Shown one piece after another: positions 2,770 to 27,724 of a stretch of 64,000 nucleotides of DNA. This stretch comes from Kiritimatiellia bacterium (GTDB taxonomy: Bacteria; Verrucomicrobiota; Kiritimatiellia; CAIVKH01). The translations under genes and the position numbers were made by a program. Location: the NCBI GenBank assembly GCA_039807095.1, contig JBDHQM010000002.1:97261-161260 (forward strand), given 5' to 3'. A model generated the notes under the pieces. The model saw nothing but the letters and a program-made list of their open reading frames with translations, did not search any database and was not told where the DNA came from. Every line of letters starts with the position of its first letter. Positions within the stretch are counted from its first letter, which is position 1.

Positions 2770-3810
2770 TTAGGCCGCCGCCATTTCCCGGCGATTCGGC
2801 TCATATTCTTCGCCACTCTTCCACAACGCATGCAATAGCACCGCCAGTTTCCTGGCCACAGCCACCACAGCACGCTTCTTCGCCCGCTTCCCACCCCGTT
2901 TCTGGATCGCCATTCCATAGCGGCGCAGATCACACTCCGGACCAAAGGGCCCCAAAATATACTGAGCACTTCCCACCAGCAGTTTCCTCAAATACGCGTT
3001 GCCCGCTTTGCTTATCCCTAGTTGTTTTATCGTCTTGCCCGATTCATCAAGCCGTGGAGTAAGCCCTAAATACGGACCCACCATCCGACTCTTTTCAAAG
3101 CGGTCCGCTTCCTCCAGCGTCAAAACAAACGCAAGCGAGGTGACCGGGCCAACGCCAACAACCTGCTGGAGGGTTTCAGTCTCCGCATAATCAAGGCAGA
3201 GTCGTCCAATAAGTTGATCATAAGCACGTATTTGCTCCGTCATCATCGCTATCAGTTCCATTGTAGGTTCCAAAGCAGGAACGAGCGCCTCAGGAAGCTC
3301 GGCTTTTCGTGCAAAGGCATCAGAACGAATGCTCGATGGAATGCGTTCGCCGAAGCTCTTAACCATGCCGCGAACATGCTGGATTAGTCGGGCACGCGTC
3401 CGAACCACCATGTCACGCGCACGAACAACGGCTAAATCCTGCTGTGCCCCGGCACTGCGATGCTCAATGGGACTTAGCAGTTTGGAATCGAAGCGACCCA
3501 TACGGGCCAACAACTCCGCATCACGAACGTCCGTTTTGTACGCATTCGCCCAGATGGCTCGAAGCTTCCTGGCGTTCCCGACTAGCGTCTCCAAACCTGC
3601 GGCCTTCGCTTCTTCACTCACCCAACGCGAGTGCGTGCCACTCTCGATCACCAGGTTGGCCCCGGAATACTGACCGAAAAACTTCGCCACCGCTTTGCGT
3701 GTGCAGGGAACCGTACATTCCCGAGCAATTTCACCGCTCGCATCCAAAATGCAGACTACGTGCTTTTTATCTCCAAGATCCATACCGATTGTGATAGTTG
3801 TTTCGTTCAT
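2770..3810 (-). CDS. IS110-family transposase
   Basis: 346-aa ORF with an N-terminal DEDD-type catalytic region (ITIGMDLGDKKH...) and the C-terminal IS110/IS1111 transposase-20 region. Confidence 0.85.
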   Translation of the reverse strand: MNETTITIGMDLGDKKHVVCILDASGEIARECTVPCTRKAVAKFFGQYSGANLVIESGTHSRWVSEEAKAAGLETLVGNARKLRAIWANAYKTDVRDAELLARMGRFDSKLLSPIEHRSAGAQQDLAVVRARDMVVRTRARLIQHVRGMVKSFGERIPSSIRSDAFARKAELPEALVPALEPTMELIAMMTEQIRAYDQLIGRLCLDYAETETLQQVVGVGPVTSLAFVLTLEEADRFEKSRMVGPYLGLTPRLDESGKTIKQLGISKAGNAYLRKLLVGSAQYILGPFGPECDLRRYGMAIQKRGGKRAKKRAVVAVARKLAVLLHALWKSGEEYEPNRREMAAA

Positions 3811-5175: not shown

Positions 5176-6201
5176 CTAAACGGCAGAAAGAAATGCCTCC
5201 ATCTGTTCATCCGTCCCGATTGTGATCCGGAGATAATCGGAAATCCGCGGGGCGGCAAAATAGCGCACGAGAATCTTCTTTTCGCGCAAATGCGCGAACA
5301 GCTCTTTCGCGCTGATCCCGTGTGGTTTCGCAAAAAGAAAATTCGTTGCCGAGGGCAACACAGACCACCCGCGCGCCATCAACGCTGCTGCAACGCGATT
5401 GCGCGTCGCCACAATCTTTTCCGCATTCGCCCGCATCCATGCCTGATCGCGAATCGCCGCCAGACCGATCACCTGCGTCAACGCATCGAGATTGTAGGAA
5501 TCTTTGATTTTATACATCGCTTCAATCAGTGGCGCAGCACCAACTGCATAACCCAGTCTGATCCCGGCAAGCGAATAGGACTTCGAGAGCGTGCGCGACA
5601 CCAGCACATTCGGGTAGCGCAGTGCGAACTCCATTCCGTTTTCCGGGGCAAAATCAGCGTATGCCTCATCCAGCAGTACCACACCGCGATAACTCGCACA
5701 GAAGGCTTCCAGCTTCTCGCGCGGATACAGCATTCCAGTCGGCGCATTCGGCGTGGTCAAAAAGAAAAGCGGCGCGCAATCGGGCGCGGGAGTCGTCCAC
5801 TCAAAGCGGTCCGTCAGCGGAACGTGCACCGTCGGGACATCGGCAATCGCCGCCAGCACGGGATAGAGCGAATACGAAGGGTCGAAGCAGGCGATCCGCC
5901 CGCCCGGCGCGACAAAGGCGCGCGTGCAAAGCGCAAGCGTTTCATCAGAGCCATTTCCGGCAAATACATTCTCGATCTTACACCCGTGCAGCTCCGCAAT
6001 CGCCTCACGCAATTCCGTCGCGACCGGATCGGGATAAAGCCGCAGCCGCTCGGCCGAGAACGCCCTGAGCGCTTCTTCCACGCGCGGCGAAGGCGGGTAT
6101 GGATTCTCATTGGTGTTAAGCTTGATGAGCCCGGGCACGCGCGGCTGCTCGCCGGGTGTATAGGGCGTCATCGCAGCAACAGAGGGTCGAATTAATGGCA
6201 T
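5176..6201 (-). CDS. hisC: histidinol-phosphate aminotransferase
   Basis: Class II aminotransferase with the PLP lysine motif (SKSYSLAGIRLGY) and the N-terminal LNTNENPYPP motif. Start is taken at MPLIRP. Confidence 0.9.
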   Translation of the reverse strand: MPLIRPSVAAMTPYTPGEQPRVPGLIKLNTNENPYPPSPRVEEALRAFSAERLRLYPDPVATELREAIAELHGCKIENVFAGNGSDETLALCTRAFVAPGGRIACFDPSYSLYPVLAAIADVPTVHVPLTDRFEWTTPAPDCAPLFFLTTPNAPTGMLYPREKLEAFCASYRGVVLLDEAYADFAPENGMEFALRYPNVLVSRTLSKSYSLAGIRLGYAVGAAPLIEAMYKIKDSYNLDALTQVIGLAAIRDQAWMRANAEKIVATRNRVAAALMARGWSVLPSATNFLFAKPHGISAKELFAHLREKKILVRYFAAPRISDYLRITIGTDEQMEAFLSAV

Positions 6202-6284
6202 ATTCAAATCATCCTTCGCACGAGCTGGCACAGTGCGCAGCCACAAAACTGGTAGAGTGCGAGACGTTCATTGTCAAACTCTCC

Positions 6285-7406
6285 TCATGCACGGCTCTGA
6301 ACCACGCGTTCGAACACGCGCCACAACGCCGCCGCGCTTGCATCCCACGTGAACAGGCGAGCGCGCTCGCGCCCTGCCTTCACTAAGCGCGCGCGATCGT
6401 CAGCCGACATCACAACCGCCTTACTCAGCGCAGCGGCAAAAATTGCTTCATCCCGCCCATCTGCATAGCAGGCGGCATCGCCTGCCACCTCGGGAATAGA
6501 CGCTTCGCGCGTAGTAAATACCGGTGCTCCCGCCGTCATCGCTTCCAACACGGGCAGGCCGAATCCCTCGTAGAGCGACGGGAATACAAACCAATCCGCT
6601 CGCTGATACAGCGCGATCATTTCCTCCCGTGCAACATCCGCCAGGCGCACCACCCGCCCTGCGGGCGACTGCGCAAGCGCGGCTGCAACTTCCGGCTCAC
6701 CCAGCCGCGCTTTCCCCACCAGCACGAGGCGATGTGGAATCACCGATGCGATGCGATTGAAGGCGCGGATCAACATCGCGACATTTTTGTGCGGATAGGT
6801 ATGCGCCACGCAAAGCAAATAGGGGCCGTCTCCCGTCCGCAACGGCACACTCGATGGCACGCCAAACGCCGGGTCTGCTGCAAGCAGAGTTACTTCGATC
6901 TTGTCTGCGGGTGTGCCGAGGAAGCGAACGATCTCCGCCTTCGCAAATTCGGAAATTGTCACCACCGCCGCACTCACACGCGCGGCGAGCGGATAGAGGA
7001 TATCCATCGTCTGCGCCGCAAGCCACGTGACATCGTGTGGGAAGCGCTTGTACTGCATGTCGAGAGTGGACACGACCTGCGGACACGAACATCGCCATGG
7101 CGCCGTATAGCCCGGCGACCACAACACATCCACTCCGGCGCGCTTCACGAGTTTTGGCAGTGAAAACTGTTCAGCTGGAATCCGCGCAAACCGGTTTGTC
7201 GCCGCGACGCCTGTAGGCACCAGTTTTGCCGCCGGAAACGCGCGACTCAAAAATTCATGATTCTCGGCATTGGTAAAAAGGACAAGCTGCGGGGGCAGCT
7301 CGCGTCGGAGCAGTGCACGCAGCGTTTCGAGCAGATAGGTTTCAGAACCGCCGACCTCACCCGGCAGATAAAATAGCGTATTGACGCCCACTCGCATCGC
7401 GCTCAC
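6285..7406 (-). CDS. glycosyltransferase family 4 (GT-B)
   Basis: C-terminal EX7E-like region (EGFGLPVLEAMTAGAPV). Confidence 0.8.
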   Translation of the reverse strand: MSAMRVGVNTLFYLPGEVGGSETYLLETLRALLRRELPPQLVLFTNAENHEFLSRAFPAAKLVPTGVAATNRFARIPAEQFSLPKLVKRAGVDVLWSPGYTAPWRCSCPQVVSTLDMQYKRFPHDVTWLAAQTMDILYPLAARVSAAVVTISEFAKAEIVRFLGTPADKIEVTLLAADPAFGVPSSVPLRTGDGPYLLCVAHTYPHKNVAMLIRAFNRIASVIPHRLVLVGKARLGEPEVAAALAQSPAGRVVRLADVAREEMIALYQRADWFVFPSLYEGFGLPVLEAMTAGAPVFTTREASIPEVAGDAACYADGRDEAIFAAALSKAVVMSADDRARLVKAGRERARLFTWDASAAALWRVFERVVQSRA

Positions 7407-8005
7407 GGCTCCACGCGACGATGCTGCTTTTCCAGCTCCTCCACGCGCGCTTCAAGGTTGGCGCAACGCTGCGCCAGGCGTGCGCGGTCGTCGCTCAAGC
7501 GGGAAAGCGCGATAGAAAAGTGAAATGCGACGAGCAATAGAAACGTGAAGATCACCGCCACAACAAACGTCACGTACTGCATTCCGAAGAGCGCACAGAA
7601 AAAATCGAGCACATCCGTAAAGATTGCGCAAAGCAGCAAAATCAAGCCCGTGGACATCCACAATAGCGCATATCGCTCGCGCAGATGCGCGCGACGAACG
7701 GCCTCAAATGTCACCAGCAGGACAACAAAGCTCAACACGCCCATCAGCAATCGGATGCGTCCAAGAAATGTGATGCGGTTCAATTCCAGCAAAAGCCGCA
7801 AATCCCACGCCAGTGCGGCAAAGAACAGAGATAGCGCAATGAGAATTACGCTGCGGAATACGTGAATGCGATTCGCGCGCACCGCCAATACCATCGTCAC
7901 AAGCAGGAACACTGCGATGGCGACGAACAACACGCGCGCCCCCATCGGGCCCAGCGGGGCTACAATCGCGTCAACCCAACCCTGCATGGTTTTGACCGCG
8001 TTCAT
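7403..8005 (-). CDS. DUF2304 small membrane protein (partner of a polyprenol-phosphate glycosyltransferase)
   Basis: Four to five TM helices plus a C-terminal coiled coil. ATGA overlap with the upstream GT2 gene. Confidence 0.6.
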   Translation of the reverse strand: MNAVKTMQGWVDAIVAPLGPMGARVLFVAIAVFLLVTMVLAVRANRIHVFRSVILIALSLFFAALAWDLRLLLELNRITFLGRIRLLMGVLSFVVLLVTFEAVRRAHLRERYALLWMSTGLILLLCAIFTDVLDFFCALFGMQYVTFVVAVIFTFLLLVAFHFSIALSRLSDDRARLAQRCANLEARVEELEKQHRRVEP

Positions 8006-8733
8006 GTCCACTCCACCGTATAGCGGCGCGAAAGCCCCTTGTTCAATACGCGGACCCGGTCCACTACCAGCGCGAAGCCCACCTTCAGCGCGTAATAGAC
8101 TGTTCCCCAACCGTGAATACTCGACTGACCAGCCTGGCGTGCGCGGAACTGTACACCCGCCTCTGTGAACGTGTAGCCCAGTCGGCACAAAAGGGCGATT
8201 GCCTCAGGCTCCGGATAATCCACCGGATACTCGCGCGCAAAGTATTGCAGCAACGGTCGCTTCACTGCCCAGAAACCGGACGTGGGATCCGTCACACGTC
8301 TCCGGCAGATAATGGAAAGGAAAACCGCCAGCATCTTAATTCCGAAGAAACGGAACAGCGTCGTGTGTAAACCGGCGGACGAAAAACGGGAACCAATCAC
8401 GAGGTCCGCATCTGACTCACGCGCCGCCTTCAACAGCGTCGGGATTTCAGACGGCGGATGCTGCCCGTCTCCATCAATCCGGATTGCCAGTTGATAGCCA
8501 TTCGCCAGCGCATACTGGAAGCCCGCCTGCACCGCGCCGCCTACGCCCAGGTTGCACGGCAGGTCAAGAACTGTTGCGCCCGCCTCACGCGCCACCAGCG
8601 CTGTCCGGTCTGAGGCGCCATCACAGATCACAAGTGCAGGCACGCCCGGACACGCATCCGCGAGTTCCTTCACCAAGCCTCCAATCGAACCCTCCTCGTT
8701 GAAGGCCGGAATAATGACGACGACATCCTTCAT
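8002..8733 (-). CDS. GT2 polyprenol-phosphate sugar synthase (GtrB/ArnC/Ppm1-like)
   Basis: GT-A fold with DGxSxD and DxD motifs. About 240 aa, similar to dolichyl/undecaprenyl-phosphate hexose synthases. Confidence 0.75.
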   Translation of the reverse strand: MKDVVVIIPAFNEEGSIGGLVKELADACPGVPALVICDGASDRTALVAREAGATVLDLPCNLGVGGAVQAGFQYALANGYQLAIRIDGDGQHPPSEIPTLLKAARESDADLVIGSRFSSAGLHTTLFRFFGIKMLAVFLSIICRRRVTDPTSGFWAVKRPLLQYFAREYPVDYPEPEAIALLCRLGYTFTEAGVQFRARQAGQSSIHGWGTVYYALKVGFALVVDRVRVLNKGLSRRYTVEWT

Positions 8734-8790
8734 TTGGAATCCCGTCAGTATGAGCAGAAAGCCTCCCGCGTGTCCACGCCGCGCACGGCC

Positions 8791-10602
8791 CTAATCATCC
8801 GTCTCCAAATAAAACCCTGCCCCTAAATTTCCGGCCTTGCGCATCCGAAGCTCCTTCAACGGATACGGCGTACAGGGAAGCGGTGCGTCGCCACATTGAT
8901 CGCCCTGTACCGGCGCATACACAAGAAAAGGCGTGTTGGTGCCCAATACAAGTTCCTGCACAGGCAAGCTGCGCGAATGGCCAATCTCCCACCAAGGCCG
9001 ACTCGACGCGCTCTTCAACGACGGCTTCATCCACCACACCAACGACGCCACAGCGGCAATTGCAAGAAGCCGAATCCACGCGCGATCAGGGAGGCGCGAG
9101 AACAAGAGTGCACCTGCCGCGCCAAACCACATCCAGAAAAATCCAAGCCCAAATCGTAAATCCGGCGCAGTGAGCAACCAGAAGACCAGACTCGCCCCCG
9201 CCATCAGCAGAATCAAGATGGCCGCAACATCTTCGCCCCATAACGCCCCGCCGCGCCGCCGCCACGGCCATATCGTCAGCCATGCGGCGACGCAAACAGC
9301 TCCCGCTATCGCAATGAAGCGTGGAACGCCCCGCCAATTCTGCCGCGCCCAACGAGGCAGCCATTCCGACAACCGCTGGTTCGCCGCTTTTCCATAATGC
9401 GGACCGGGGCGACGCGCCCAGCCCTTTAGCACTCGATATTGCCCCTCCACGGACTGCATTTTGTATTCATGCCCTTTGGCAATGGGCTCTCGCGGAACCG
9501 ACCAATCCACCGGCAATGCCAAAATTGGACTTGGATATAGTGGCCATCCTGTTGCAATCGAATTTCGTGCAACAACACTCACAGCAAATAGACCGGGTAA
9601 AAGCAGAAGTGTAGCCGCGCGTCGTATCGCAGCAGGACGGCTCGCCCGCTCATCCGCACTCCACGCGATCAGTGCACTCAGCACGGCAACGAGCAGCACA
9701 ACAGCCGAAAGCGCTTTGACGGCATACGCCGCAGAAATCAGGAATAGAGGCGCGCGCAGCGCGAGCAGCCACGCACCTCTCTCTTTGGGCGGATATCGCA
9801 AGAGTTGCAAACCTGCGACGAGGAGCAAAATGTGCGCAACGTCGTCAGTGTATAGCGAAGGCTGGAGCAACCCGACCTGCGCGATCAAATACGGCAAAGT
9901 GAACAATGCGAAAAACCGAGCGACAGGCGGTACGGTTGTTTCGCGCACGATCACGTGAAGCCACTGCAGAAGCGCTGCACCCAGAGCGAAACCGGGAACA
10001 ACCCACGCGGATCGGCCATCCCACCATCCATGATCTACAAACGCTGCCAGCAACAAACCCGCGTAGGTATGCCCCAAGCGGCAGTGCAGATTTGCGATAC
10101 CCGGCACAACTGCATACTCCTTCGCCCAGCGCACCCAGGAAAAATGGTAGAGGTCGGTGTCATAAACGGAGGACCAACGCCAGGTGGCGGATTTCATCAC
10201 CAGCAAAACGATTGTCGCAGCTGCAAGCGTCCAGGAAACAAGACCGCGCATATTCACGCGCGGACGAGACGCAAAATCCGGCGCGACGATGCAGGTGGCG
10301 CGCGAACAGCGGTTGAAGAAACCGGCCGTAGAAATTAGCGCTACAGCTCCCGCGACAAATGATGTCAACGGAACCACAAAATTCAGTACGAGCAGAACGA
10401 GGAGCAAAAACGCGAGGCCTATCCAGAAGCGGGGCCATCGGTCGAACCTCTCCTGCGACCCGCTCATGAGGCGCCAAAGCGATTCGACCGCGAGACCGAA
10501 GCCCTGACACACCAGCGCGAGAAGCAACCAGGCTAAAGCAATACGAATCATGGGCGCTTTATCTACTCGGGATCCTGCAACAGCAATTCCGGCGAATCCC
10601 AC
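8791..10602 (-). CDS. large polytopic membrane protein, GT-C-like putative glycosyltransferase (start probably the internal Met at 10551)
   Basis: At least 12 predicted TM helices. Acidic D-x-D (YDTDLYHF) in the first loop. Confidence 0.45.
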   Translation of the reverse strand: MGFAGIAVAGSRVDKAPMIRIALAWLLLALVCQGFGLAVESLWRLMSGSQERFDRWPRFWIGLAFLLLVLLVLNFVVPLTSFVAGAVALISTAGFFNRCSRATCIVAPDFASRPRVNMRGLVSWTLAAATIVLLVMKSATWRWSSVYDTDLYHFSWVRWAKEYAVVPGIANLHCRLGHTYAGLLLAAFVDHGWWDGRSAWVVPGFALGAALLQWLHVIVRETTVPPVARFFALFTLPYLIAQVGLLQPSLYTDDVAHILLLVAGLQLLRYPPKERGAWLLALRAPLFLISAAYAVKALSAVVLLVAVLSALIAWSADERASRPAAIRRAATLLLLPGLFAVSVVARNSIATGWPLYPSPILALPVDWSVPREPIAKGHEYKMQSVEGQYRVLKGWARRPGPHYGKAANQRLSEWLPRWARQNWRGVPRFIAIAGAVCVAAWLTIWPWRRRGGALWGEDVAAILILLMAGASLVFWLLTAPDLRFGLGFFWMWFGAAGALLFSRLPDRAWIRLLAIAAVASLVWWMKPSLKSASSRPWWEIGHSRSLPVQELVLGTNTPFLVYAPVQGDQCGDAPLPCTPYPLKELRMRKAGNLGAGFYLETDD

Positions 10603-12278
10603 TCATAAATCGCCAGCGCATCGTTGTCGAACACACGACGGAATCGCGCGTCTGCATCCAGTTGCGCGGCAAAATAATCTGGATAGACACCAAGATTTGA
10701 AACTTCCGCATCCACATGCGCAACGCGGTCTTTTTTGATTACAATCGCGCCGACCCTTCGCCTCGCAAGAATGCCGATTCGCGTATCGTTATCGCCCAGC
10801 CAAAACTCACGCAAATGGCCGCCCAGATACCAATCGTGCGGTGCAGGAAACAAACGATAATTGCCTTCCGGATACATAAATATCCGACGCGGCTCCGGCA
10901 AATGCTCTCCCAGAAAGGCAATTCCCTCTTTCAGCTCATCGGACACACTTCGAAGCTGAACGGTCTTTGCAAGCACGCCGCCCGCCTGGGCCAAACACAG
11001 CAGCAGCAGCGCAGGAATCCAAATACGCGGGCGGACCAATCTGGCAGCCGATTCCGCGACAGGAATGAGAAGAAAGGGCACTGCGGGATAAAAGAACCGC
11101 GCATCCGGAGACGCCCTGAGCAAGAATGCAGCGGGAATAAGAAAACTCAATCCCACCCAGAACGGCCAGCACACCGCGGCAGCTTCCGATAGCTCGACGA
11201 GGCGGGTGCGACGGAATACTGACCCCGCTGCACCGGCGATCAATACAACCCACAGCGCGCCGCCACCATAGAGCAGCCAGTTCTTAGGCTCGCGTAAGTC
11301 GCCCGGATGATATGCCGACACTTGATTTTCATAGACCGATATTGATTGCGCTTTTACTGGCCGCGCGGCCCTTGGCTTTTCCGAACTACGCGATGGCGGT
11401 GACGTTTTTGCGCCAAATTTCTCAGCAATTGCGCGAACCTGGCGCAGCGGATAATACCCGCCATGCGGCGACAACACGCGATCTGCAATCTGCATGGAGA
11501 AGCTCACCAGAACGAGCGAGACCAAGAGCGGAATAAGTGTACAACGCACCCTTGCTCTGCGGGGTTTGTCACGTGTAGCGCTCCAGCGCCGCAGTGTCAG
11601 CATGACAAAGAACGCAGGAATGAACAGAGCGGCCGTCTCTTTCATACACAGAGCAAGCACAAGAAACAGCGTCGCCCATACCCAGCGCCGACGCTCCAGC
11701 AAATAGAACGCTGTCAGCAATTGCGCGGTCATCGGAACATCGAGATAGAAGACAACTGAAAACAGTAGCGACATGGGCAAAGAGGCAAGCGTCAGCAGAT
11801 ACACAATCGTTGAGCGCGCGGGCGTTTTCGAACACGACCGCAGCAGCAGAGAGCCGGCGAATAGCAACTGCGCAAAAAACAGCGCCTGATAAATCTGCAC
11901 CGAGGCAAAATAGGGGAACAAACGATACAGCCATGCCCCCGCGTAATGCCAAAGGTTTGCGTGCGCATAGTAGTGAAACTCCGTCTCTCCCCACCCCGTG
12001 GGAATAAACACTTCAAACGTGAGTGACGGCAATACATCCGCCTGATGCGTCAGCATGAAATAGTGCCGAACTTCATCCCCCAGCATCGCATGCGGCATCC
12101 AAAGCCCGGCGATCAAGACGGCAAACGAAAACAGAATGACGAGGCCTAGCCGCACGCGAGAAAGCGCGCGCGGTGCATGCGTACAACTCGTCGCGGAATT
12201 GGCATCTATTGATGAAGCTTCTCTCATCCAGCAGTACCTGCGGACTACAATGCGCAACACCCTATTCCATCTCAACAA
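10563..12278 (-). CDS. GT-C glycosyltransferase, PMT/ArnT-like (GT39/GT83-like); start probably 12227
   Basis: First-loop LGDEVRHYF resembles the PMT FDEVHFG motif. Multi-TM N-terminal half with a soluble C-terminal domain. Confidence 0.55.
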   Translation of the reverse strand: MLRWNRVLRIVVRRYCWMREASSIDANSATSCTHAPRALSRVRLGLVILFSFAVLIAGLWMPHAMLGDEVRHYFMLTHQADVLPSLTFEVFIPTGWGETEFHYYAHANLWHYAGAWLYRLFPYFASVQIYQALFFAQLLFAGSLLLRSCSKTPARSTIVYLLTLASLPMSLLFSVVFYLDVPMTAQLLTAFYLLERRRWVWATLFLVLALCMKETAALFIPAFFVMLTLRRWSATRDKPRRARVRCTLIPLLVSLVLVSFSMQIADRVLSPHGGYYPLRQVRAIAEKFGAKTSPPSRSSEKPRAARPVKAQSISVYENQVSAYHPGDLREPKNWLLYGGGALWVVLIAGAAGSVFRRTRLVELSEAAAVCWPFWVGLSFLIPAAFLLRASPDARFFYPAVPFLLIPVAESAARLVRPRIWIPALLLLCLAQAGGVLAKTVQLRSVSDELKEGIAFLGEHLPEPRRIFMYPEGNYRLFPAPHDWYLGGHLREFWLGDNDTRIGILARRRVGAIVIKKDRVAHVDAEVSNLGVYPDYFAAQLDADARFRRVFDNDALAIYEWDSPELLLQDPE

Positions 12279-14556
12279 AAAGCACTCTATGAATCAGTGC
12301 GCCTAAATCGCCCGGGTAGTTGTCGCGGTGTCCCGCAGACTGCGGATCAAAGGGGGTTTCTGCATAAAAATGATAGATTCCGGTACGAGGCAGTTCTATT
12401 CCTGCAGGCGCCACAAGTTCGGCTGTCAATTCGGCGACGGACGGCGGCACATCCAGCCAGACCGCGCCCCCTTCGCCCCACGGCGGCACCACGCGCAGAC
12501 GTTGCACGGGCTTGCTTTGATTCGATGCGGCAACAACGGTCAATTTCACACGCCCCTTGCGCGGAACGGGCCCGACAATGCCGCTACCCTCACGGCTCCA
12601 CTGCCCCGGCACGCGCGTCCCATCGCTCAGCTTCAACGACTGTGTAGGCCCCCACGGCGGGCGCAACGCAGCAGGACCACCATCAAGCAGTTTTTCCTGC
12701 TGGAGTCTCGCGATCTCATTGTCAATTAGCGCGACGCGTGCAAATTGCAACACGCGCTCGTCCTTCTTAAGAACTGCAGGAAGCGCCCGCTTGCTGTGCA
12801 CACGCGATACAGGAATCCGCTCTGTCGAAATAGGTTCAAAGCGAATCCCTTCTTCCAAATCAGGCAGCGAACGCGATGCGACAAACCACACATCCTCTGT
12901 GCTCGCCACGCCGCGAAGCCAGCCGATAAGTTGTTCCCAGTGCTGCGGCTTTCCCTCGCTGCTCCAACCAATGGCGCGCGTCTGGTTATCCACCGCGAAA
13001 GGAAAGCTGTCGGGAAGATAATCGAAGAGAACTAAGCGCGACCCGATGTTCGCTTTTATTTCTTGTACGCGCTCCAGCGCGCCGATTTCTTGGCGAACAA
13101 AATATGGAGCAGGCCACCGCGCTACATTTGCGCTGCCAAGAACAAGTGCCAGGACGCCGCATCCCGCCGCAATCGCGCGGCGAGTTCCGATCCGGGCTTG
13201 AACCCAGCGCGCGGCAGGCAAGAGCAATGCGGGTAGTAACAATAAAACAAACGGCCCCATTCGTCGCTGGCTCCACATTGCCATTTGTTCTGCGCCCTTG
13301 AGATAGGAAAAGACGGGCAGCAACGCGACCGCAAATCCTGCCACCAGACGCGCACGGCCGGCAGTCCTCGAAAATACAAGCGGGATCGCGCACGCGATCG
13401 CAAGAACTGCAGCGGGCCATCGAACAGCGGACCAGAGATCTGTCAGTCCCGTCAACACACGCGGCGATTCTGCCCAGAAAAGCAAGGCCAAGGCGGTAGG
13501 CAATACGGCAACCAATAACCAGGCGGGCGCACGGGGATGCAAGCGATCCAACGCTCGTTGAAATGCGTCTGCCTTACGAAGCCGCCAGATCAGGAGCCAT
13601 AGCAACGCAATGCCAAATACAGCGGCAAATACATCCACGACTTGGTGCGCTTGGCTATATTTGAAATTCACGACCAGCGTGCGCCAGCGCAGCCTGCCAT
13701 ATGGCCCGCAGACATTTGCGGTCAACCAGAGCAGAAATGCAGGGCCGGTTGCGAACAGCGTCACCCCAGATAAAAGCCGCCGCGCTGAACCCCGGTCTAC
13801 TGCCAGCAATACGGCGAGCAACGGAAGCGAGACAACGATCAAAGCAGGATGGAATGCCGGCGCCAAACCGAGTGCGAGATATGCAGCCAGCGATACCGGC
13901 CGCCCCGCAGGCAGCGTCATCCAATGCAGGGCGACCAGACCCGCAAACACTGCGCCACACACTTCCGCATAAAAACCGCGAAACAGCATCGCAGGCAATG
14001 GGGTCGCCAGAAAGAGCGCGCCCGCAAGAAGCAGTCCGGCAACCCCGCCCTCACGACGACCGATTGCGAGCAGAGCCGCTGCAAACAACAGCCCCAAAAG
14101 AGGCGGGAATAGGTCCATGCCTCTCCACGGCAAGAGCTTCTGCAACCCCGCAGCGCCCAGCGGTAGCGTGGGGTAAAAGTACGGCTCTGTTGCCCCGGAT
14201 CCGTCTTGCATCACTCGAAAGGATCGGTCGCGCGTGTTGCGATCCTTGGTGTACGGAAGCAACGTGAGATCCTCCCGAAATTCAGAAGAAACATCGAGAA
14301 ACGTGTGGTCAACATCATTGAAGCCGCGACCATTGGCGAACGAGTACGCCATAAGCCGGTAGCCGGAGTGATCCAATGCGGTGAACGTATCGCCGTGAGG
14401 CCGCAACAAAAGCAACGCAGCCAATAACACCGCCACCCACACGCCAAGCGAACGCCACACACCGCGCACAGACTGAACGCACAGCCAGATGGCGCAGGAA
14501 ATCGAAATCAGGAAAATCGCTAGTGCAAGCCAAGACATCGAGAAGATAGTAGCCAT
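12262..14556 (-). CDS. large polytopic membrane protein with C-terminal periplasmic domain (GT-C/YfhO-like, putative glycosyltransferase)
   Basis: 764 aa. Multiple N-terminal TM helices and a roughly 300-aa soluble C-terminus. Confidence 0.4.
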   Translation of the reverse strand: MATIFSMSWLALAIFLISISCAIWLCVQSVRGVWRSLGVWVAVLLAALLLLRPHGDTFTALDHSGYRLMAYSFANGRGFNDVDHTFLDVSSEFREDLTLLPYTKDRNTRDRSFRVMQDGSGATEPYFYPTLPLGAAGLQKLLPWRGMDLFPPLLGLLFAAALLAIGRREGGVAGLLLAGALFLATPLPAMLFRGFYAEVCGAVFAGLVALHWMTLPAGRPVSLAAYLALGLAPAFHPALIVVSLPLLAVLLAVDRGSARRLLSGVTLFATGPAFLLWLTANVCGPYGRLRWRTLVVNFKYSQAHQVVDVFAAVFGIALLWLLIWRLRKADAFQRALDRLHPRAPAWLLVAVLPTALALLFWAESPRVLTGLTDLWSAVRWPAAVLAIACAIPLVFSRTAGRARLVAGFAVALLPVFSYLKGAEQMAMWSQRRMGPFVLLLLPALLLPAARWVQARIGTRRAIAAGCGVLALVLGSANVARWPAPYFVRQEIGALERVQEIKANIGSRLVLFDYLPDSFPFAVDNQTRAIGWSSEGKPQHWEQLIGWLRGVASTEDVWFVASRSLPDLEEGIRFEPISTERIPVSRVHSKRALPAVLKKDERVLQFARVALIDNEIARLQQEKLLDGGPAALRPPWGPTQSLKLSDGTRVPGQWSREGSGIVGPVPRKGRVKLTVVAASNQSKPVQRLRVVPPWGEGGAVWLDVPPSVAELTAELVAPAGIELPRTGIYHFYAETPFDPQSAGHRDNYPGDLGALIHRVLFVEME

Positions 14557-14592: not shown

Positions 14593-15702
14593 TCAACGCG
14601 CACGACCCTTCTCCGCCGCGACTCCAACAAGCGAAGCCTTCAGCTTTGCGCGCAAGTTCCCGACATCCAAATGACGCCGATAATAAGCACGCGCAGCCTC
14701 CATCTGGGCGCGGCGCGCATCAACATCTCGCTGCAGTCGCATAGCTTCGTCCCGCATCTCCGACGGCGAATCCACCTCGATCCACGCGCCGTCCCCCGTC
14801 GGAATTCCGCGCATCGCTCCGCGGCGCGCAATAATGGCGCGCCCTGCGGCAAGCGCCTCGATTGTCTTGATCTGAACCCCCATCCCTTCAATGGTCGTCA
14901 TCAGTATGATTCCGCATTCGCGATACGGATCCATTGTCTCGTGATATCGCCCCACCCGTTCGAAGCCCACTTCACCGACATGCGCCGCCAGCCCGCCGTA
15001 CACGCGAATTGGCGATTCCGTAATGCCCTCGCCCAACCAACGCAACCCCTCGCGATTGAATGCGTTGGCCGAACCGATCATTCCGATGCGCTCTGAGTCG
15101 GGCAGTTCCACCGCATCCACAAACGGTGGACTCCATAGCGTCCGCTCAATTCCACGCGCGCGCAAACGCTCCTGCTCCTGCTGTGAAATAACGACGACCA
15201 AGCCCGCGCTTCTCAAATCGCGCGTTTCCGCGGCGTGTCCGCCCCACATAAAGTCCGACCACACATCCAGTAGCGCGACGACTTTTGGGCACTTCGTCGG
15301 GAAACCCGCCCAGAAACTATAAACAAATACAGCGAGATCAGCCGATTCAGAGTGATGCGCAACCCATCGCGGATCAAAGGCAAACCGATGGTACGGATTC
15401 GCGTGGCCGAATGCCTTTTCCAGTCGCAGCGCTTTGCAAACGACGGCATAGAGCAACCCTAACCACCGCAACGGACGGAGCCGGCGAGGCTCATCGTCTT
15501 CGCGAAACAGAATGCGGAACCCCCGCGATTCCAATTCCGCAATCGCCGGTTTCGTCCAGCCAGTTCCAACCGGCAGCGTACGCGCGGAAAGGATTGTACA
15601 CTCACCCAATTCGCGAAGAGTCTCCAACACCTTCAGCATCTCCATCTTCCCACCGTGGTCGGCTGGAAGCGGGCAATAGGGAATAAGAACCACCGATTTC
15701 AT
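14593..15702 (-). CDS. glycosyltransferase family 4
   Basis: GT-B fold, about 369 aa. Confidence 0.65.
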   Translation of the reverse strand: MKSVVLIPYCPLPADHGGKMEMLKVLETLRELGECTILSARTLPVGTGWTKPAIAELESRGFRILFREDDEPRRLRPLRWLGLLYAVVCKALRLEKAFGHANPYHRFAFDPRWVAHHSESADLAVFVYSFWAGFPTKCPKVVALLDVWSDFMWGGHAAETRDLRSAGLVVVISQQEQERLRARGIERTLWSPPFVDAVELPDSERIGMIGSANAFNREGLRWLGEGITESPIRVYGGLAAHVGEVGFERVGRYHETMDPYRECGIILMTTIEGMGVQIKTIEALAAGRAIIARRGAMRGIPTGDGAWIEVDSPSEMRDEAMRLQRDVDARRAQMEAARAYYRRHLDVGNLRAKLKASLVGVAAEKGRAR

Positions 15703-16769
15703 TCGCTGGTCCCCACGGAGATACTTCTAGGCTCATTCTGCCACTTCACCAAATCACGGATAAAACGCTCGGTGCGCAACTCGCGGCCCTCTGCGTTCAG
15801 ATGATAGGCGGAGTCATAAAACAATGCGCGATCGAAACGGTAGTCTTCCGGCACAGAAATCACGGCAATATCCATCTCTTTCAAGTGCCGGGCGATAAGG
15901 TTGATCCATTCTCTCTGGTTATCAAACGACTCCTGCTCAAAGCTCGGATAGCTCAGCACAAAAGAAACAGAATTGTGCGCGTCTCTCACTTCATTGAAGA
16001 AACGCGACAGCGCACGGAAGATGTTCATGTCGAGTTTCTCGAGATCGGCGGCGTGCGAAGCCTTGAAGGGCAACGCGGGCTTCCCGAGATGCCCGACGAA
16101 ATCACCATATTTGTTGAAGCCGCTGCGACGCAGCACAGCGTCTGAAAATACCTCGCGCCTCCGGAAAAAGCTGAATGACTTCCATCTGATGTATTCTGCG
16201 AACTGACTCGGCAGGCCATACATCCCTCGTCGCCACAGCAGCGACGGGGGCTTCCTCTCAACATCAATCATTACAGCGATTCGGTTGAAGTTCCCGTTCC
16301 ATCCGGAAAACTGACCATATTCAGGCAATAACGCAACGGTGTCCCCATCCTGAATAAACGGCTCGACGGAAGCCAGGGCATACCCCAACCCCATTCCCGC
16401 ATTGAAGCCGGTGTTGATCACCGTCATGCCGGTTTCACTCTCAATCCGCTCTGAATTCATACTGAACGCAAGATTCGATCCGCCGATCAGAATAAGCCGC
16501 CTGGGCCGCCCCATCGTCTCCTTCAGCCGCGCCAGTTTATCGAGCCATGCCATATTGTAATCGTCGGCCGCCAGCGATGGCGAAGGGCGCGTCAGGCAGA
16601 ACGCGACGAGCGCGGCTGCTGCCATGAGCAGTAGAAAAAAGAAAAGCGCCGTCTGTTTGATGAAGCGTCTCATTGTATATCCATCTAAAACTGAAAATAG
16701 ATGAACTCCATTCCGCGCGAAGGTGCGAAAAAGAACATCAGCCCTATAAGCGCGTAATACAGACCCCAC
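15699..16769 (-). CDS. SGNH/AlgX-AlgJ-DltD-like polysaccharide O-acetylation protein (probable start 16673)
   Basis: Signal anchor, GGSN motif, Ser and His blocks. Adjacent to and coupled with the MBOAT gene. Confidence 0.6.
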   Translation of the reverse strand: MGSVLRAYRADVLFRTFARNGVHLFSVLDGYTMRRFIKQTALFFFLLLMAAAALVAFCLTRPSPSLAADDYNMAWLDKLARLKETMGRPRRLILIGGSNLAFSMNSERIESETGMTVINTGFNAGMGLGYALASVEPFIQDGDTVALLPEYGQFSGWNGNFNRIAVMIDVERKPPSLLWRRGMYGLPSQFAEYIRWKSFSFFRRREVFSDAVLRRSGFNKYGDFVGHLGKPALPFKASHAADLEKLDMNIFRALSRFFNEVRDAHNSVSFVLSYPSFEQESFDNQREWINLIARHLKEMDIAVISVPEDYRFDRALFYDSAYHLNAEGRELRTERFIRDLVKWQNEPRSISVGTSE

Positions 16770-18169
16770 CGCAGCAGTTTATTCTGTGGCAGTCGCGCAA
16801 GGCCATGCTGCTCGCGACGGGCAAACCACTCCACGGCGAACAACACAACAATCCCAAGCGGCGCCGCGATGGATTTAACATCGCCGAAAAGAGCGGGCAG
16901 CATATTTCGGCCTGATGCAAGAGAAAGCATTCTCGCAATCCACGTGAACGCGACGTGAATATCCGGCGCGCGAAAGAACGTCCACGCCAAAACAACCAAA
17001 AGAAATGTAAGCGCCATTTGCAGCGCCTCCGCAAGTGTCGGAAGGCTGTGCTCCGCAGCGACAACTGACGTATATTTCCGGTTTCGACGCAGCAGCAGCA
17101 AAGGCAAGAAACAACACGCATGCACGAAACCCCAGGCGATGAAGGTCCAATTTGCGCCGTGCCAAAATCCGCTGACGACAAATATGATGAACACATTCCG
17201 GATCGCCATGCTGACCGAGCAGCGGCTTCCGCCCAGTGGAATATACAGGTAGTCCCGAAACCAGGTGCTTAACGAAATGTGCCAGCGCCGCCAAAACTCT
17301 GCGATATCGCGCGAGAAATAGGGATAGGCGAAGTTGCGCATCAAACGAATGCCGAATAAACGCGCACACCCAATCGCAATATCAGAATAGCCCGAAAAAT
17401 CGCAGTATATCTGTATCGCGAAAAAGACCGCGCCCGCCCATAGCGAAACACCCGAAGGCTCTGAATCTGACTTCAAGATTGTATTTGCAAGGCTCGCGCA
17501 ATTATCGGCCACCACCATCTTCTTGAACAGTCCCCACAGCATCTGCCGGCAACCATCCACTGCTGAGGAATAATCGAAGCGACGGGGAGACAAAAATTGC
17601 GGCAAAAGACTGGAAGCGCGCTCAATCGGACCCGCTACAAGCTGCGGGAAAAAAGTCACAAACGCGAGGAAGGCTACGATGTCGCGAGCCGGCTCCACAT
17701 CGCGGCGACAGACATCCACCGTGTAGCTGATCAGTTGAAAGGTGTAAAAACTAATGCCGACGGGAAGGATAACGCGCAGCGACGTAATATGAGGCGCAAA
17801 ACCGAGCTGCAGCAACAGGCTCGCGAATTGCTCAATGAAGAAGTTGGAATACTTGAAATAGCCAAGAATACCAAAATTGACGACGCAGCTTAGCCAGACC
17901 CAGCGACGGTCGCGCCGATCGCCCCTCGAAGCGAGAACGCCAAGCGCGTATGTCCACAGGGAGCTCAAGGCTATCAGGATGAGAAAACGCCAGTCCCACC
18001 AGCCGTAGAACACGTAGGAAGCGATAACGATGAGCAGATTTTGCAATCTGCGCCGGTGCGCGCCAATCAGCCAATAGAGAGAAAAGACAATGGGCAAAAA
18101 AACGAGAAAGGTGAGGGAGTTAAATAGCATCGCTCTCTCCGACTCCTTCGGCCAAGCCTCTCCGGACAA
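16685..18169 (-). CDS. MBOAT family O-acyltransferase (AlgI/DltB-like); probable start 18130
   Basis: Multi-TM protein with the conserved His region (WHISLSTWFRDY...GFWHG). Confidence 0.85.
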   Translation of the reverse strand: MSGEAWPKESERAMLFNSLTFLVFLPIVFSLYWLIGAHRRRLQNLLIVIASYVFYGWWDWRFLILIALSSLWTYALGVLASRGDRRDRRWVWLSCVVNFGILGYFKYSNFFIEQFASLLLQLGFAPHITSLRVILPVGISFYTFQLISYTVDVCRRDVEPARDIVAFLAFVTFFPQLVAGPIERASSLLPQFLSPRRFDYSSAVDGCRQMLWGLFKKMVVADNCASLANTILKSDSEPSGVSLWAGAVFFAIQIYCDFSGYSDIAIGCARLFGIRLMRNFAYPYFSRDIAEFWRRWHISLSTWFRDYLYIPLGGSRCSVSMAIRNVFIIFVVSGFWHGANWTFIAWGFVHACCFLPLLLLRRNRKYTSVVAAEHSLPTLAEALQMALTFLLVVLAWTFFRAPDIHVAFTWIARMLSLASGRNMLPALFGDVKSIAAPLGIVVLFAVEWFARREQHGLARLPQNKLLRWGLYYALIGLMFFFAPSRGMEFIYFQF

Positions 18170-21775: not shown

Positions 21776-22624
21776 CTACGGTCGCTTCCACATATAAATG
21801 CTGCCACCGATAAGCGTGAGATTAGCCGCGCGCAGCCAAGGATTTCGCCGCAGTGCTCCCAGCACGCGGGCACCGATTCCCACGCGCGCGTCTCCGCGCG
21901 GCAAGCTCAACAAATCCATCGGTGAATAGAACTGCGCAAATCCTGCCTCACGCCCCAGCGAACACAAATCGGCAAAGCTATACCAGTGCACAGCGGGGCG
22001 TGGCGAATAGTCCGCCAGCGTCGGCTTATAGTGCAGATGTTGAAAGACGTAGGATTCTCTTACTGTGCGCGGGAACCAGTTGTAGAACGGCACGCGATAT
22101 TCCCCGTTGCGGCCCAGCGGTGAAAAACGGAGCCGGTTTGTCGTCCGGACAAACAAAACACCCCCCGGCGCCAGCACGCGAAACATTTCCGCCAGACTTT
22201 TACCGGGCGAGTCCACATGCTCCAACACACCCTCCATCAGCACAATTCGCTGCGAGTGATCCGGAAACGGCATTTCTTCCGCAACACCCCATTTCACACG
22301 CGATGCATCGCCCAAATACTCACGCGCCACTGCCAGGCTTTCCTCCACCGGTTCAATGCCCACGGCATCAAACCCCTTTTCAAGCAGCGTTTTCACTGTG
22401 AGCGGGCTCGGCCCGCACCCCACAACCGCCACCGTTTTGAGGCCAGCCGACAGATCAATAAGGCGACGACAGCACTCGAGAATATCGTTAAGCCCGCCAC
22501 GTTTGAGTGTTGTCGGCAAGCGTTCATCAAACCGCTTCCGTTTATGTTCAACGTAGCGAGCAGGCAAATCCGGAACACCGGATGAAAGAGGGCGATTGCG
22601 ATACAAGTCCGAATACTTCATCAC
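21776..22624 (-). CDS. class I SAM-dependent methyltransferase
   Basis: Motif I VVGCGPS. Length and later motifs fit the Methyltransf_11/12 type. Confidence 0.75.
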   Translation of the reverse strand: MMKYSDLYRNRPLSSGVPDLPARYVEHKRKRFDERLPTTLKRGGLNDILECCRRLIDLSAGLKTVAVVGCGPSPLTVKTLLEKGFDAVGIEPVEESLAVAREYLGDASRVKWGVAEEMPFPDHSQRIVLMEGVLEHVDSPGKSLAEMFRVLAPGGVLFVRTTNRLRFSPLGRNGEYRVPFYNWFPRTVRESYVFQHLHYKPTLADYSPRPAVHWYSFADLCSLGREAGFAQFYSPMDLLSLPRGDARVGIGARVLGALRRNPWLRAANLTLIGGSIYMWKRP

Positions 22625-23388
22625 CGGCTCCCTTTCGCGCGCGAATGTTGAGACACGATAAACTCCGCAATGCGCTGTGCTTCGGCATCAAGGTTTGAAA
22701 TGCCACTCGCGCGAAGCACAGGAACGCCTCGACCCTCCAGTGCATCAGCAAGTGCATTCAGTAGGGTCGCGCCCTCCTGAAAACGTGTCTTCATTTTATC
22801 TACGGGTTCACTCCCGAACAGGACAGGGGGCTGTCCGCGTCCTTGTACGCGCTCTACGCAGACATCGGCCGGAGTATCCACACAAATCAAGACATCCGGC
22901 GCGGGCAACAATGCGGCATAGCGCTCAGCGTCCGCAGGTTTGCCCAGCCCGCGATAACCGCGCAACGAGAAGAATCGGTGCGCAAACCCTTCGTCGAGCA
23001 CAACAATTCCATCCAGTTGTTTCGCCAATTGAAATTCAAAGCCTGAAGTCAACACCGCGCGAAATACCGGATCGCGCCAACTCGAATCCGTCCCGGATAC
23101 AGCGAGCCATTCGTGCAGCAACGCGACGAAATCCGCGTGCTCGACTGCAAAGCGATGCCAATCGTTCAGCCCGTGGGGCAGTCCGAGAAAATGCCGGCGC
23201 CAGGCAGGAATGAGCCGGCCACACAGATTGCCAATGACTCCGAAATCACGCGCACGCAAACCCCGCTCAACTACGTCCTCGCGATTCGCAGCCTCGATAC
23301 CGCGCGCGCGCAACGCCTTCACCACCACTCCGCAGAGCGTGCTCTTGCCCGCCGCAGGGACGCCGCAAAACTCTACGCGCATTTTCAC
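22621..23388 (-). CDS. P-loop NTPase, small-molecule kinase-like
   Basis: N-terminal Walker A motif (GVPAAGKST) and a Walker B-like VVLDEGF. 255 aa. Coupled by ATGA overlap to the methyltransferase. Confidence 0.5.
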   Translation of the reverse strand: MKMRVEFCGVPAAGKSTLCGVVVKALRARGIEAANREDVVERGLRARDFGVIGNLCGRLIPAWRRHFLGLPHGLNDWHRFAVEHADFVALLHEWLAVSGTDSSWRDPVFRAVLTSGFEFQLAKQLDGIVVLDEGFAHRFFSLRGYRGLGKPADAERYAALLPAPDVLICVDTPADVCVERVQGRGQPPVLFGSEPVDKMKTRFQEGATLLNALADALEGRGVPVLRASGISNLDAEAQRIAEFIVSQHSRAKGSR

Positions 23389-27011: not shown

Positions 27012-27724
27012 GTCGGATTCTCCCCGCGTTGAAGCAGAAAACTCGCCCACTCCAAATCCATTTCGGAATCAATATCTACTCCAGCCTCTTCAGTCATTTT
27101 GAACAAAACGATTTTGCCGCCCAACCGATTGTTTCCCTGCCGCAGCACCCACGGTTTGAAAATGTAAATGGATCCGTTCTCCCGATAGCGTGGCGCCATG
27201 TCCTGACGCCGCGGGCGTACACGCCAGTCGCGATTGACCGCGACCGCAGATCCATCCTGTTCTTCCCAAAGAAACAGATGAGAGGGCGAAACAGAGACAA
27301 CAGAATCGGCATTCGATTCCTCTAGCAAGGCAATAGCGGAATCAATATCCATTCCGGTTCGAATCGGACACGTTGCTTGTAGAAATACGACGAGGTCAGG
27401 GTCTCCGCCCCGGTCTGCCGCGATGCAATCCAACGCGTGCAACAGCGCAGCCTCGGATGTTGTCGAGTCTTCCGCCAAGACCGCCGGGCGATCAATAATC
27501 TGTGCGCCGGCATCTTGTGCTGCGCACTTAATCTCGGCGTCATCCGTGCTGACATACACACAAGAGACGCGTTGAGACTCAAGCGCATCGGCGACGCTCC
27601 ACGCAATCAGTGGGCGCCCCGCTACAGGACGCACATTTTTTCGCGGCACACCCTTGGATCCGCCGCGCGCCGGGATGATGGCGACGACGTTTTCGAATCG
27701 CTGACTGTGCTGGGAGGGGTTCAT
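27008..27724 (-). CDS. neuA: acylneuraminate (CMP-ulosonate) cytidylyltransferase
   Basis: IPARGGSKGVPRKN motif of the CTP_transf_3 family. Confidence 0.85.
   Translation of the reverse strand: MNPSQHSQRFENVVAIIPARGGSKGVPRKNVRPVAGRPLIAWSVADALESQRVSCVYVSTDDAEIKCAAQDAGAQIIDRPAVLAEDSTTSEAALLHALDCIAADRGGDPDLVVFLQATCPIRTGMDIDSAIALLEESNADSVVSVSPSHLFLWEEQDGSAVAVNRDWRVRPRRQDMAPRYRENGSIYIFKPWVLRQGNNRLGGKIVLFKMTEEAGVDIDSEMDLEWASFLLQRGENPT

Follow-up and report, generated by a model that had tools for sequence, protein, structure and literature searches.

A block of five genes at the far end of a Wzm/Wzt-dependent glycan operon probably encodes a glycosylation module of several components that works across the membrane and would decorate the polymer after export. 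The block lies in a window of 64,000 nucleotides (the whole stretch of DNA analysed) from a Kiritimatiellia bacterium and encodes, in their order on the minus strand, three membrane proteins named here memA, memB, and memC, a glycosyltransferase of family GT2, and a DUF2304 protein.

Gene block and operon context

All five open reading frames were present on the minus strand where the first-pass annotation had placed them (Table 1), and homologs of all five are conserved, indicating that none is a chance reading frame. The three large membrane proteins that it had set upstream of the GT2 gene comprise 764, 571, and 603 aa as open reading frames (memA, memB, and memC, respectively), or 758, 554, and 586 aa from the ATG starts of the public gene models (14538, 12227, and 10551), which are the likely starts. 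Each is polytopic and ends in a soluble C-terminal tail (~284, ~129, and ~101 aa by hydropathy); hydropathy and the positive-inside rule were the sole basis for the topology of the proteins of the block. The ATGA coupling proposed for the GT2 and DUF2304 genes was found as the overlap of the GT2 stop with the DUF2304 start, and the DUF2304 stop is overlapped by the GTG start of the next gene, encoding a GT4 glycosyltransferase. Counts of promoters and terminators in a scan of 5-17 kb were the same as in shuffled sequence.

Table 1. Coordinates of the module genes and of the operon genes discussed with them
Feature	Coordinates	Strand	Basis of assignment
Wzm	35171-36007	-	ABC2_membrane
Wzt with Wzt_C domain	33861-35174	-	ABC_tran, Wzt_C
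MBOAT	16685-18169	-	PF03062, 94.5 bits
MBOAT partner, single-TM, 356 aa	15699-16769	-	No family match
Weak GT4-like cytoplasmic protein	14593-15702	-	Weak Glyco_trans_1_4 match
memA, predicted GT-C-fold membrane glycosyltransferase with C-terminal CBM35-like beta-sandwich	12262-14556	-	Structure model
memB, predicted GT-C glycosyltransferase with invariant first-loop GDE motif	10563-12278	-	Pfam GT-C families, motif
memC, DUF8201/LIC_10190-family polytopic membrane protein, probably GT-C fold	8791-10602	-	NF047510, weak model
Predicted polyprenyl-phosphate sugar synthase of 243 aa, GT2 family with GT-A fold	8002-8733	-	PF00535, PDB relatives, motifs
DUF2304 membrane protein, GacJ/Rv3632 family, ~5 TM and charged C-terminal helix	7403-8005	-	PF10066
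GT4 glycosyltransferase	6285-7406	-	Glycos_transf_1, Glyco_transf_4

A Wzm/Wzt ABC exporter heads the same-strand gene array, and the GT-C block closes this surface-glycan operon of ~30 kb. The context of an ABC-exported polymer claimed earlier was borne out by the Wzt_C domain of this exporter, and Wzm/Wzt is predicted to deliver the acceptor polymer. The GT4 gene is the final glycan gene before hisC and holds the same position in the related locus L004. Additionally, the MBOAT protein and its partner, directly upstream of the GT-C block, are predicted to form an extracytoplasmic O-acylation pair. The MBOAT protein scored 160 bits against the DltB model TIGR04091, below its cutoff. Its partner, for which Pfam, NCBIfam, and the PDB gave no match, is 62% identical to the gene product after MBOAT in L084; a similar unannotated gene follows MBOAT in L005 and L086, there without a BLASTP match to the partner in the window. 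Orthologs of the weak GT4-like protein (52-76% identical) directly precede memA in L004 and L084, and in L002 one lies several genes upstream of it. Related loci were also retrieved with sequences sub-selected for VPGLGNLHG. Kiritimatiellota strain B12222 (L001), a cultivable relative, likewise has the module. Flippases of the GtrA, Wzx, MATE, and SMR families were found neither among the window genes scanned (to ~53 kb) nor in the eight related loci.

The predicted GT2 synthase and its DUF2304 partner

The GT2 protein matched PF00535 with 66.8 bits, and its top NCBIfam matches were PpgS, AglJ, Dol-P-hexose transferase, and ArnC, each below the equivalog cutoff. Its closest solved relatives are DPMS of P. 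furiosus (5mlz; 3e-12) and ArnC (9bhc/8vxh; ~1e-10), with the motif DGDGQH aligned with DADLQH and the DxD at residue 87. The protein ends at residue 243 and has a single weak hydrophobic segment, without a TM anchor of its own. By sequence, it is a member of the polyprenyl-phosphate glycosyltransferase class of GT2, in agreement with the synthase type assigned to it in the first-pass annotation, while its donor and lipid specificity are predicted only. A score of 83.3 bits against the PpgS equivalog NF058614, far below the cutoff of 370, indicates that it is not a PpgS ortholog, although it is predicted to operate as PpgS does. A processive GT2 synthase, the alternative that the first-pass annotation had raised, was ruled out by the length of the protein and by the absence of the processive-synthase motif QxxRW from its sequence.

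The DUF2304 protein scored 63.4 bits against PF10066 (cutoff 25.5) and has ~5 hydrophobic segments, as expected of the small protein with four to five TM segments described earlier. By analogy with GacJ and Rv3632, whose function has been described (bioRxiv 10.1101/180810), it is predicted to be an activator or anchor of GT2. It shares 57% identity with the N-terminal domain of P0045, a DUF2304::GT-C fusion protein, and an N-terminal DUF2304 domain (PF10066) is likewise fused in ~92 of 120 memB homologs, among the matches listed. In L084 and L085, a PpgS-like GT2 gene lies directly upstream of such a fusion. DUF2304 is also fused to cytoplasmic GT2 proteins in some bacteria (Rush et al.).

These widespread DUF2304::GT-C fusions argue that DUF2304 bridges donor synthesis and donor use, and they bear on the role of GacJ/Rv3632-type proteins and on the question of who flips Und-P-sugars. 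DUF2304 is fused to GT2 in some bacteria and to a periplasmic GT-C enzyme in most memB relatives, and no flippase gene stands alongside the module in nine loci. Beyond activating the synthase, DUF2304 might physically couple the parts of a glycosylation complex that spans the membrane, and might even be the missing scramblase or conduit. Taken together with the idea that memA and DUF8201 represent two new GT-C families, this is a speculative proposal that we consider unlikely as a whole. If true, the synthase, DUF2304, and the GT-C enzyme would together pass Und-P-sugar through the membrane with no need for a dedicated flippase (GtrA, Wzx, or MATE), and memA and DUF8201 would each count as a new GT-C family at the CAZy level.

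Three membrane proteins and their possible acceptors

The three membrane proteins, which the first-pass annotation took for paralogs, are three families without detectable sequence similarity. Paralogy was rejected on negative results of pairwise BLASTP (E-values of at least 0.26) and of hhalign of the family profiles (probabilities of 0.3-27%). The sole sign of kinship, an 'APDxRF' motif common to memB and memC, reached an hhalign probability of 27% with a shallow profile and 3% with a deeper one. In profile searches (Pfam and NCBIfam), none of the three matched O-antigen ligase, polymerase (Wzy/WaaL, Wzy_C), or transporter families, the identities that had been set against a GT-C assignment, and these candidates were rejected. 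Characterised GT-C equivalog models likewise gave no match.

Neither the single memA sequence nor a 37-sequence profile matched Pfam, NCBIfam, or the PDB, and structure prediction was the sole informative method for its identity. The high-confidence model (pLDDT 93.6) matches ALG12, AftB, Pmt4, and ArnT, its polytopic core is superposable on solved GT-C enzymes, and its C-terminal domain (about residues 565-764) is CBM35-like; as modelled, memA is a GT-C fold. Residues D62, D83, and D110, candidates for the catalytic Asp, are invariant among the 37 sequences in the loop 52-145, and this loop is predicted to be periplasmic by the positive-inside rule. The memA family was seen in Kiritimatiellota only and is covered by no Pfam or NCBIfam model, and PpgS-like GT2 and DUF2304 genes adjoin its homologs in five other genomes. 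An unannotated, phylum-specific family thereby gains a confident predicted fold (GT-C and CBM) and a conserved genetic partner. Gene context, in the form of these memA neighbours and the DUF2304::GT-C fusions, links memA, memB, and memC to the GT2 synthase.

The Pfam matches of memB itself to ALG10, GT87, and ALG3 fell just below the gathering scores. In a scan of 27 family members, ALG3 was matched by all (best 2.7e-10), ALG10 by 21, GT87 by 20, and PMT_2 by 19, the last of these weakly and only in the relatives, not in the window proteins. The memB profile had no match among PDB sequences. On these families and its motif, memB is classed as a GT-C glycosyltransferase. The first-loop DE motif of the PMT/ArnT type that had been claimed for the middle protein is LGDEVRHYF, which directly follows the first TM helix, and M65, G67, D68, E69, V70, and H72 are invariant across the 27 members. 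The GDE lies at the predicted periplasmic end of TM1, and the 36-aa N-terminus before it contains six K/R, as a segment in the cytoplasm should, consistent with the extracytoplasmic placement originally proposed for the acidic loop.

The memC protein matched NF047510 with 174.4 bits (cutoff 100; profile positions 3-424 of 424), and its homologs carry PF26626, that is, DUF8201. Its model was weak (pLDDT 63.5) and had no Foldseek match at E<=1e-3; no GT-C match was found when 79 DUF8201 members were scanned with Pfam, nor any match of the memC profile to PDB sequences. Judging from the model, memC probably has a GT-C fold. The GT-C architecture proposed for the outer two proteins therefore held for memA and is carried by a weak model for memC. 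The DUF8201 family is very large (>7000 clusters at 50% identity), and a literature search on DUF8201 and LIC_10190 returned no papers; the family now gains a functional hypothesis, namely a GT-C enzyme often adjoining a Ppm-type GT2.

DUF2304 was present in only one of 78 DUF8201 loci, which makes the use of the GT2 donor by memC the weakest link of the module. Moreover, it is unusual for three unrelated transferases to share one synthase, so some of them may use other donors. Only memA and/or memB might use the product of GT2/DUF2304, while memC, possibly with another, would take a different lipid-linked donor (an Und-P-sugar made elsewhere or an Und-PP-oligosaccharide) or would act otherwise, as a GT-C enzyme of the periplasmic extension, polymerase, or ligase type instead of one that transfers single side-chain sugars. 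We rate this division of labour as improbable.

GT-C fold similarity does not tell one type of acceptor from another. The module might decorate lipid A or the LPS core by the logic of ArnC/ArnT, Francisella FlmF2/FlmK, or Bordetella LgmA/LgmB. However, its genes form part of a Wzm/Wzt glycan operon, the CBM35-like domain of memA belongs to a polysaccharide-binding type of domain, genes for lipid A modification (ArnA/B/D, deacetylase, or others) were not found nearby, and memB relatives are also found within Wzt_C and NeuB glycan clusters, so that lipid A or core is a distinctly improbable acceptor. At least one of the GT-C enzymes could also O-glycosylate periplasmic or surface proteins with the Und-P-sugar in a PMT-like manner. 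This seems very improbable, since memA, memB, and memC had no match to PF02366, the PMT family proper, and no MIR domain (nor, at the same E<=0.1, to PF13231 or YfhO), and since the module is located in a polysaccharide operon and memA bears a CBM-like domain.

Predicted pathway and known systems

In the favoured reading, decoration of the exported polymer, GT2 would load undecaprenyl phosphate with one sugar taken from a nucleotide-sugar donor at the cytoplasmic face, as homology suggests. The translationally coupled DUF2304 protein would hold and activate the anchorless GT2, in the manner of GacJ with GacI and of Rv3632 with PpgS. The Und-P-sugar would then reach the periplasmic leaflet, a step to which no gene is assigned. 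There, memA, memB, and memC, whose conserved charged residues, acidic and basic, fall in loops predicted to be periplasmic, would attach its sugar at different sites of the Wzm/Wzt-exported polymer. The C-terminal CBM35-like domain of memA appears to hold the polymer, and the adjacent MBOAT pair would add an acyl group, also on the periplasmic side. Making a lipid-linked sugar inside and attaching it outside by GT-C enzymes is a well-established strategy, and the system is not new in kind. Two of the three GT-C families in the block are uncharacterised, and a putative periplasmic decoration (glycosylation and MBOAT acylation) of an ABC-exported glycan is documented here in a poorly studied PVC phylum.

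The first-pass annotation regarded three paralogous GT-C genes in a row as unusual, but tandem or multiple GT-C genes have precedents. Mycobacterial embCAB are tandem GT-C genes, and the Emb proteins are true paralogs, whereas memA, memB, and memC share no detectable similarity. The Scc locus of S. mutans also holds several GT-C enzymes (SccM/SccQ); its flippases are unidentified, and one Und-P-Glc synthase, SccN, feeds both SccM and a second, unidentified transferase (PMC11754754). Its pairs SccN/SccM and SccP/SccQ amount to two synthases for two GT-C enzymes, compared with one for three here.

The polymer modified by gmlABC is ABC-transporter-dependent. As in the glucosylation of O antigen by GtrA/GtrB/GtrC-type systems and in the gmlABC system of Klebsiella O1/O2 (PMC5403891), a side-chain sugar would be put on the polysaccharide after polymerisation. 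The decoration reading of the first-pass annotation, based on GtrABC or ArnCT logic, was retained, but GtrABC was not retained as its model, since there is no GtrA-like gene and DUF2304 stands in place of the C-terminal TM helices of GtrB, which GT2 lacks. In three-component pentofuranose systems (PPPRS, a MATE flippase, and a GT136 GT-C enzyme with a C-terminal CBM; PMC11127046), a periplasmic GT-C enzyme with such a module similarly decorates O antigen from an Und-P-linked donor, although the synthase here is a GT2 rather than a PRPP-dependent PPPRS and no MATE gene is present.

Because they share the DUF2304 partner, and given the differences from GtrABC, GacI/GacJ/GacL and PpgS/Rv3632/Rv3779 come closest as models. 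In Streptococcus pyogenes, GacI/GacJ/GacK/GacL provide the GlcNAc side chain of the Group A carbohydrate (bioRxiv 10.1101/180810). The module differs in having no GacK/Wzx-type flippase gene, three GT-C enzymes instead of one, a diderm host (PVC group), and a DUF2304 protein that is longer (200 aa; GacJ, 113 aa) and has two additional TM segments. As in the Gac system, a short GT2 is predicted to form sugar-P-Und, the adjacent DUF2304 protein to bind and activate it, and a GT-C enzyme to add the sugar to a polymer exported by an ABC transporter. In Mycobacterium tuberculosis, PpgS (Rv3631)/Rv3632/Rv3779 place GalN on arabinogalactan, as cited by the same source (10.1101/180810). The acceptor glycan and the number of GT-C enzymes differ from those here, whereas the length of GT2 is about that of the 226-position NCBIfam model of PpgS, its best NCBIfam match, and in both systems the DUF2304 partner is co-transcribed and a GT-C transferase is present.

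Gene array and its genomic setting

All substantial open reading frames from ~36.0 kb down to 5.2 kb were tightly packed on the minus strand, and the coordinates assigned to the gene block in the first-pass annotation proved exact. A promoter and terminator scan (5-17 kb) returned sites not above shuffled sequence, and thus gave nothing against co-transcription of the array.

Genes of the glycan array and its flanks, in transcription order from Wzm, with hisD last
Feature	Coordinates	Strand	Remarks
Wzm	35171-36007	-	First in transcription order
Wzt with Wzt_C domain	33861-35174	-	After Wzm
DUF5672 protein, three GT2s, DUF6625 protein		-	Next after Wzt
Carbamoyltransferase, CMP-sugar-type cytidylyltransferase, CBS-NeuB-SAF-TIM-barrel fusion		-	After DUF6625 protein
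TIGR04396 "surface carbohydrate biosynthesis" protein, kinase-like protein, methyltransferase		-	After NeuB fusion
Three GT4s		-	Between methyltransferase and MBOAT
MBOAT	16685-18169	-	After three GT4s
MBOAT partner	15699-16769	-	Single-TM, 356 aa; paired with MBOAT
Weak GT4-like protein	14593-15702	-	Between MBOAT partner and memA
memA	12262-14556	-	ATG start matching public gene model, 14538
memB	10563-12278	-	ATG start matching public gene model, 12227
memC	8791-10602	-	ATG start matching public gene model, 10551
GT2	8002-8733	-	After memC
DUF2304	7403-8005	-	Start overlaps GT2 stop as ATGA
GT4	6285-7406	-	GTG start overlapped by DUF2304 stop
Class I/II aminotransferase	5176-6246	-	After GT4; looks like hisC
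Histidinol dehydrogenase hisD	38419-39783	-	PF00815, 472 bits

The ~32-kb glycan block and its two flanking genes, hisD and the hisC-like aminotransferase, shared the minus strand; the block is apparently an insertion in a his operon. The same aminotransferase followed the last GT4 in the related locus L004, which also had a Transposase_20 fragment nearby. Just past the cluster, the window carried transposase genes of the IS110 family (2770-3810) and the DDE type (1016-2593). Two ~258-aa ORFs had no Pfam match (40010-40786 and, on the plus strand after a GT2 and an FHA-domain protein, 52591-53370).

In the window (15699-18169) and at L084 (1627-4063), L005 (5292-7915), and L086 (14808-17476), an MBOAT had as its partner a mostly single-TM protein of 320-356 aa, and this pair was found again beside memB-type genes in distant bacteria. 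The partner had no match in Pfam, NCBIfam, or PDB; the L084 copy was 62% identical to that of the window, and the L005 and L086 neighbors had no BLASTP match to it. It may act in acyl transfer as a DltD/AlgJ-like partner that has gone unannotated. The operon of the Wzt_C-bearing Wzt also encoded a kinase-like P-loop protein and a SAM methyltransferase (21776-23388), a combination resembling the WbdD-type chain-terminating cap that the E. coli O9a exporter recognises. Additionally, an unusual 763-aa fusion of CBS, NeuB, SAF, and xylose-isomerase-like TIM-barrel domains (24759-27050) adjoined the cytidylyltransferase and carbamoyltransferase, suggesting that the polymer contains a modified nonulosonic-acid or related acidic sugar.

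Predicted donor synthase and its DUF2304 partner

The 243-aa GT2 matched PF00535, and its best NCBIfam matches (PpgS, AglJ, Dol-P-hexose transferase, and ArnC) were all far under the equivalog cutoffs. Solved relatives at E<=1e-3 were limited to the Dol-P-Man synthase of P. furiosus (3e-12) and to ArnC (~1e-10 to 4e-9), with DGDGQH of the GT2 aligned with DADLQH and DPTSGF with DPVSGF. Neither a QxxRW motif nor a TM bundle was found in the GT2, which excludes a processive synthase and agrees with the earlier assignment as a polyprenol-phosphate sugar synthase. Its partner is a genuine DUF2304 protein (63.4 bits, cutoff 25.5). The DUF2304 protein GacJ complexes with the GlcNAc-P-Und synthase GacI, so that the synthase's Und-P Km drops from 18.7 to 1.1 uM and its Vmax rises several hundred-fold, and PpgS is likewise stimulated by Rv3632 (bioRxiv 10.1101/180810).

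Three membrane protein families and the conserved core

The three large membrane proteins had been described as paralogs, which was not borne out: pairwise BLASTP and profile-profile comparisons of memA, memB, and memC gave no significant similarity, and a paralog array was rejected. They are three different families sharing a predicted fold. A short "(T/S)(A)PD(A/L)RF" motif was common to memB (aa 387-396) and memC (aa 478-486), in comparable positions towards the end of the TM domain. The hhalign probability was 27% for shallow profiles, and the match was lost with a deeper one; the motif might be an ancient or convergently evolved site for donor binding.

Among unfused memB family members, ALG3 was matched by all 27 (best 2.7e-10), ALG10 by 21, GT87 by 20, and PMT_2 by 19, all four being GT-C families; residues 106-236 of the window memB gave ALG10, GT87, and ALG3 matches just below threshold. 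The acidic motif previously noticed in memB is real, with M65, G67, D68, E69, V70, and H72 invariant directly after TM1, which is preceded by a K/R-rich N-terminus. Accordingly placed among these families by sequence, memB is a predicted GT-C. Approximately 92 of the 120 best memB homologs were ~760-aa proteins carrying a DUF2304 domain N-terminal to the memB-type GT-C, with hosts in Kiritimatiellae, cable-bacteria relatives (Electrothrix, Electronema), and Lentisphaerae; fusions of this kind were at L084 10001-12268, L085 10001-12301, and L005 8001-10274. These fusions, the most telling result for memB, link a memB-type GT-C to the activator of the synthase. The separate DUF2304 of the window shared 57% identity with the N-terminal part of one fusion, and a PpgS-like GT2 lay immediately upstream of the fusion gene in L084 and L085, overlapping its start in L085. 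The DUF2304 fusions described in bioRxiv 10.1101/180810 are only to GT2 (GacI homologs).

Gene context was compared in five other genomes (L001, the complete genome of strain B12222; L002-L004; and L084). A PpgS-like GT2 directly followed the memA homolog in L001, L002, L003, and L084, scoring 366-470 bits against an HMM of the window GT2 and its relatives; the next gene was a free DUF2304 in L001-L003 and a DUF2304::memB fusion in L084. In L004, a locus syntenic to the window, memA was separated from the GT2-DUF2304 pair by memB and memC. L001-L003 lacked genes of the memB and memC types; the 516-aa DUF2304 protein of L001 matched the memB profile only weakly (97 bits). On this gene context, the conserved Kiritimatiellota core is memA, GT2, and DUF2304. 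The related loci also encoded unannotated polytopic membrane proteins of 466-697 aa (~8-14 TM segments) without Pfam match (L001 6396-8126, L002 2003-5149, L003 4402-6159, L084 5154-6875, L005 1491-3365, L086 3600-5693); they matched no memA, memB, or memC profile and may be extra GT-C-like families.

Proposed route and comparison with known systems

A reading on the logic of GacI/GacJ/GacL (S. pyogenes) and PpgS/Rv3632/Rv3779 (M. tuberculosis) appears best supported. The analysis shows the motifs, the gene linkage, and the predicted folds of the module, while its chemistry and topology, like the donor sugar and the acceptor, are inferred. Cytoplasmic GT2 and GT4 enzymes would build a backbone exported by Wzm/Wzt, and the GT2-DUF2304 complex would form an Und-P-sugar that crosses the membrane, to be attached on the periplasmic face by the GT-C enzymes. 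The CBM-like domain of memA would hold the polymer during attachment, and the neighboring MBOAT pair would acylate it on the same side. The target may instead be lipid A or core, as in an ArnC/ArnT-like system, or a protein, as in a PMT-like system, but the operon context and the memA CBM speak against both. A further possibility is that part of the GT-C set, most of all memC, draws on a different lipid-linked donor or lengthens the polymer instead of decorating it.

For the favored periplasmic decoration, GtrA, Wzx, MATE, and SMR genes were found neither among the window genes scanned nor in the eight related loci. Together with the DUF2304::GT-C fusions, a further point of interest, and the known GT2::DUF2304 fusions, this suggests that DUF2304 links the making of the donor on one side of the membrane with its use on the other. 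From modeling, we are confident in predicting the unannotated Kiritimatiellota family memA as a GT-C with a CBM, and the very large DUF8201 family, to which memC belongs, gains a functional hypothesis. The system is of a known kind in a new variant. GT136 is a precedent for a CBM, like that predicted for memA, on an O-antigen-decorating GT-C (PMC11127046), and S. mutans provides precedents both for one synthase serving more than one transferase and for a system whose flippases are unidentified (PMC11754754).
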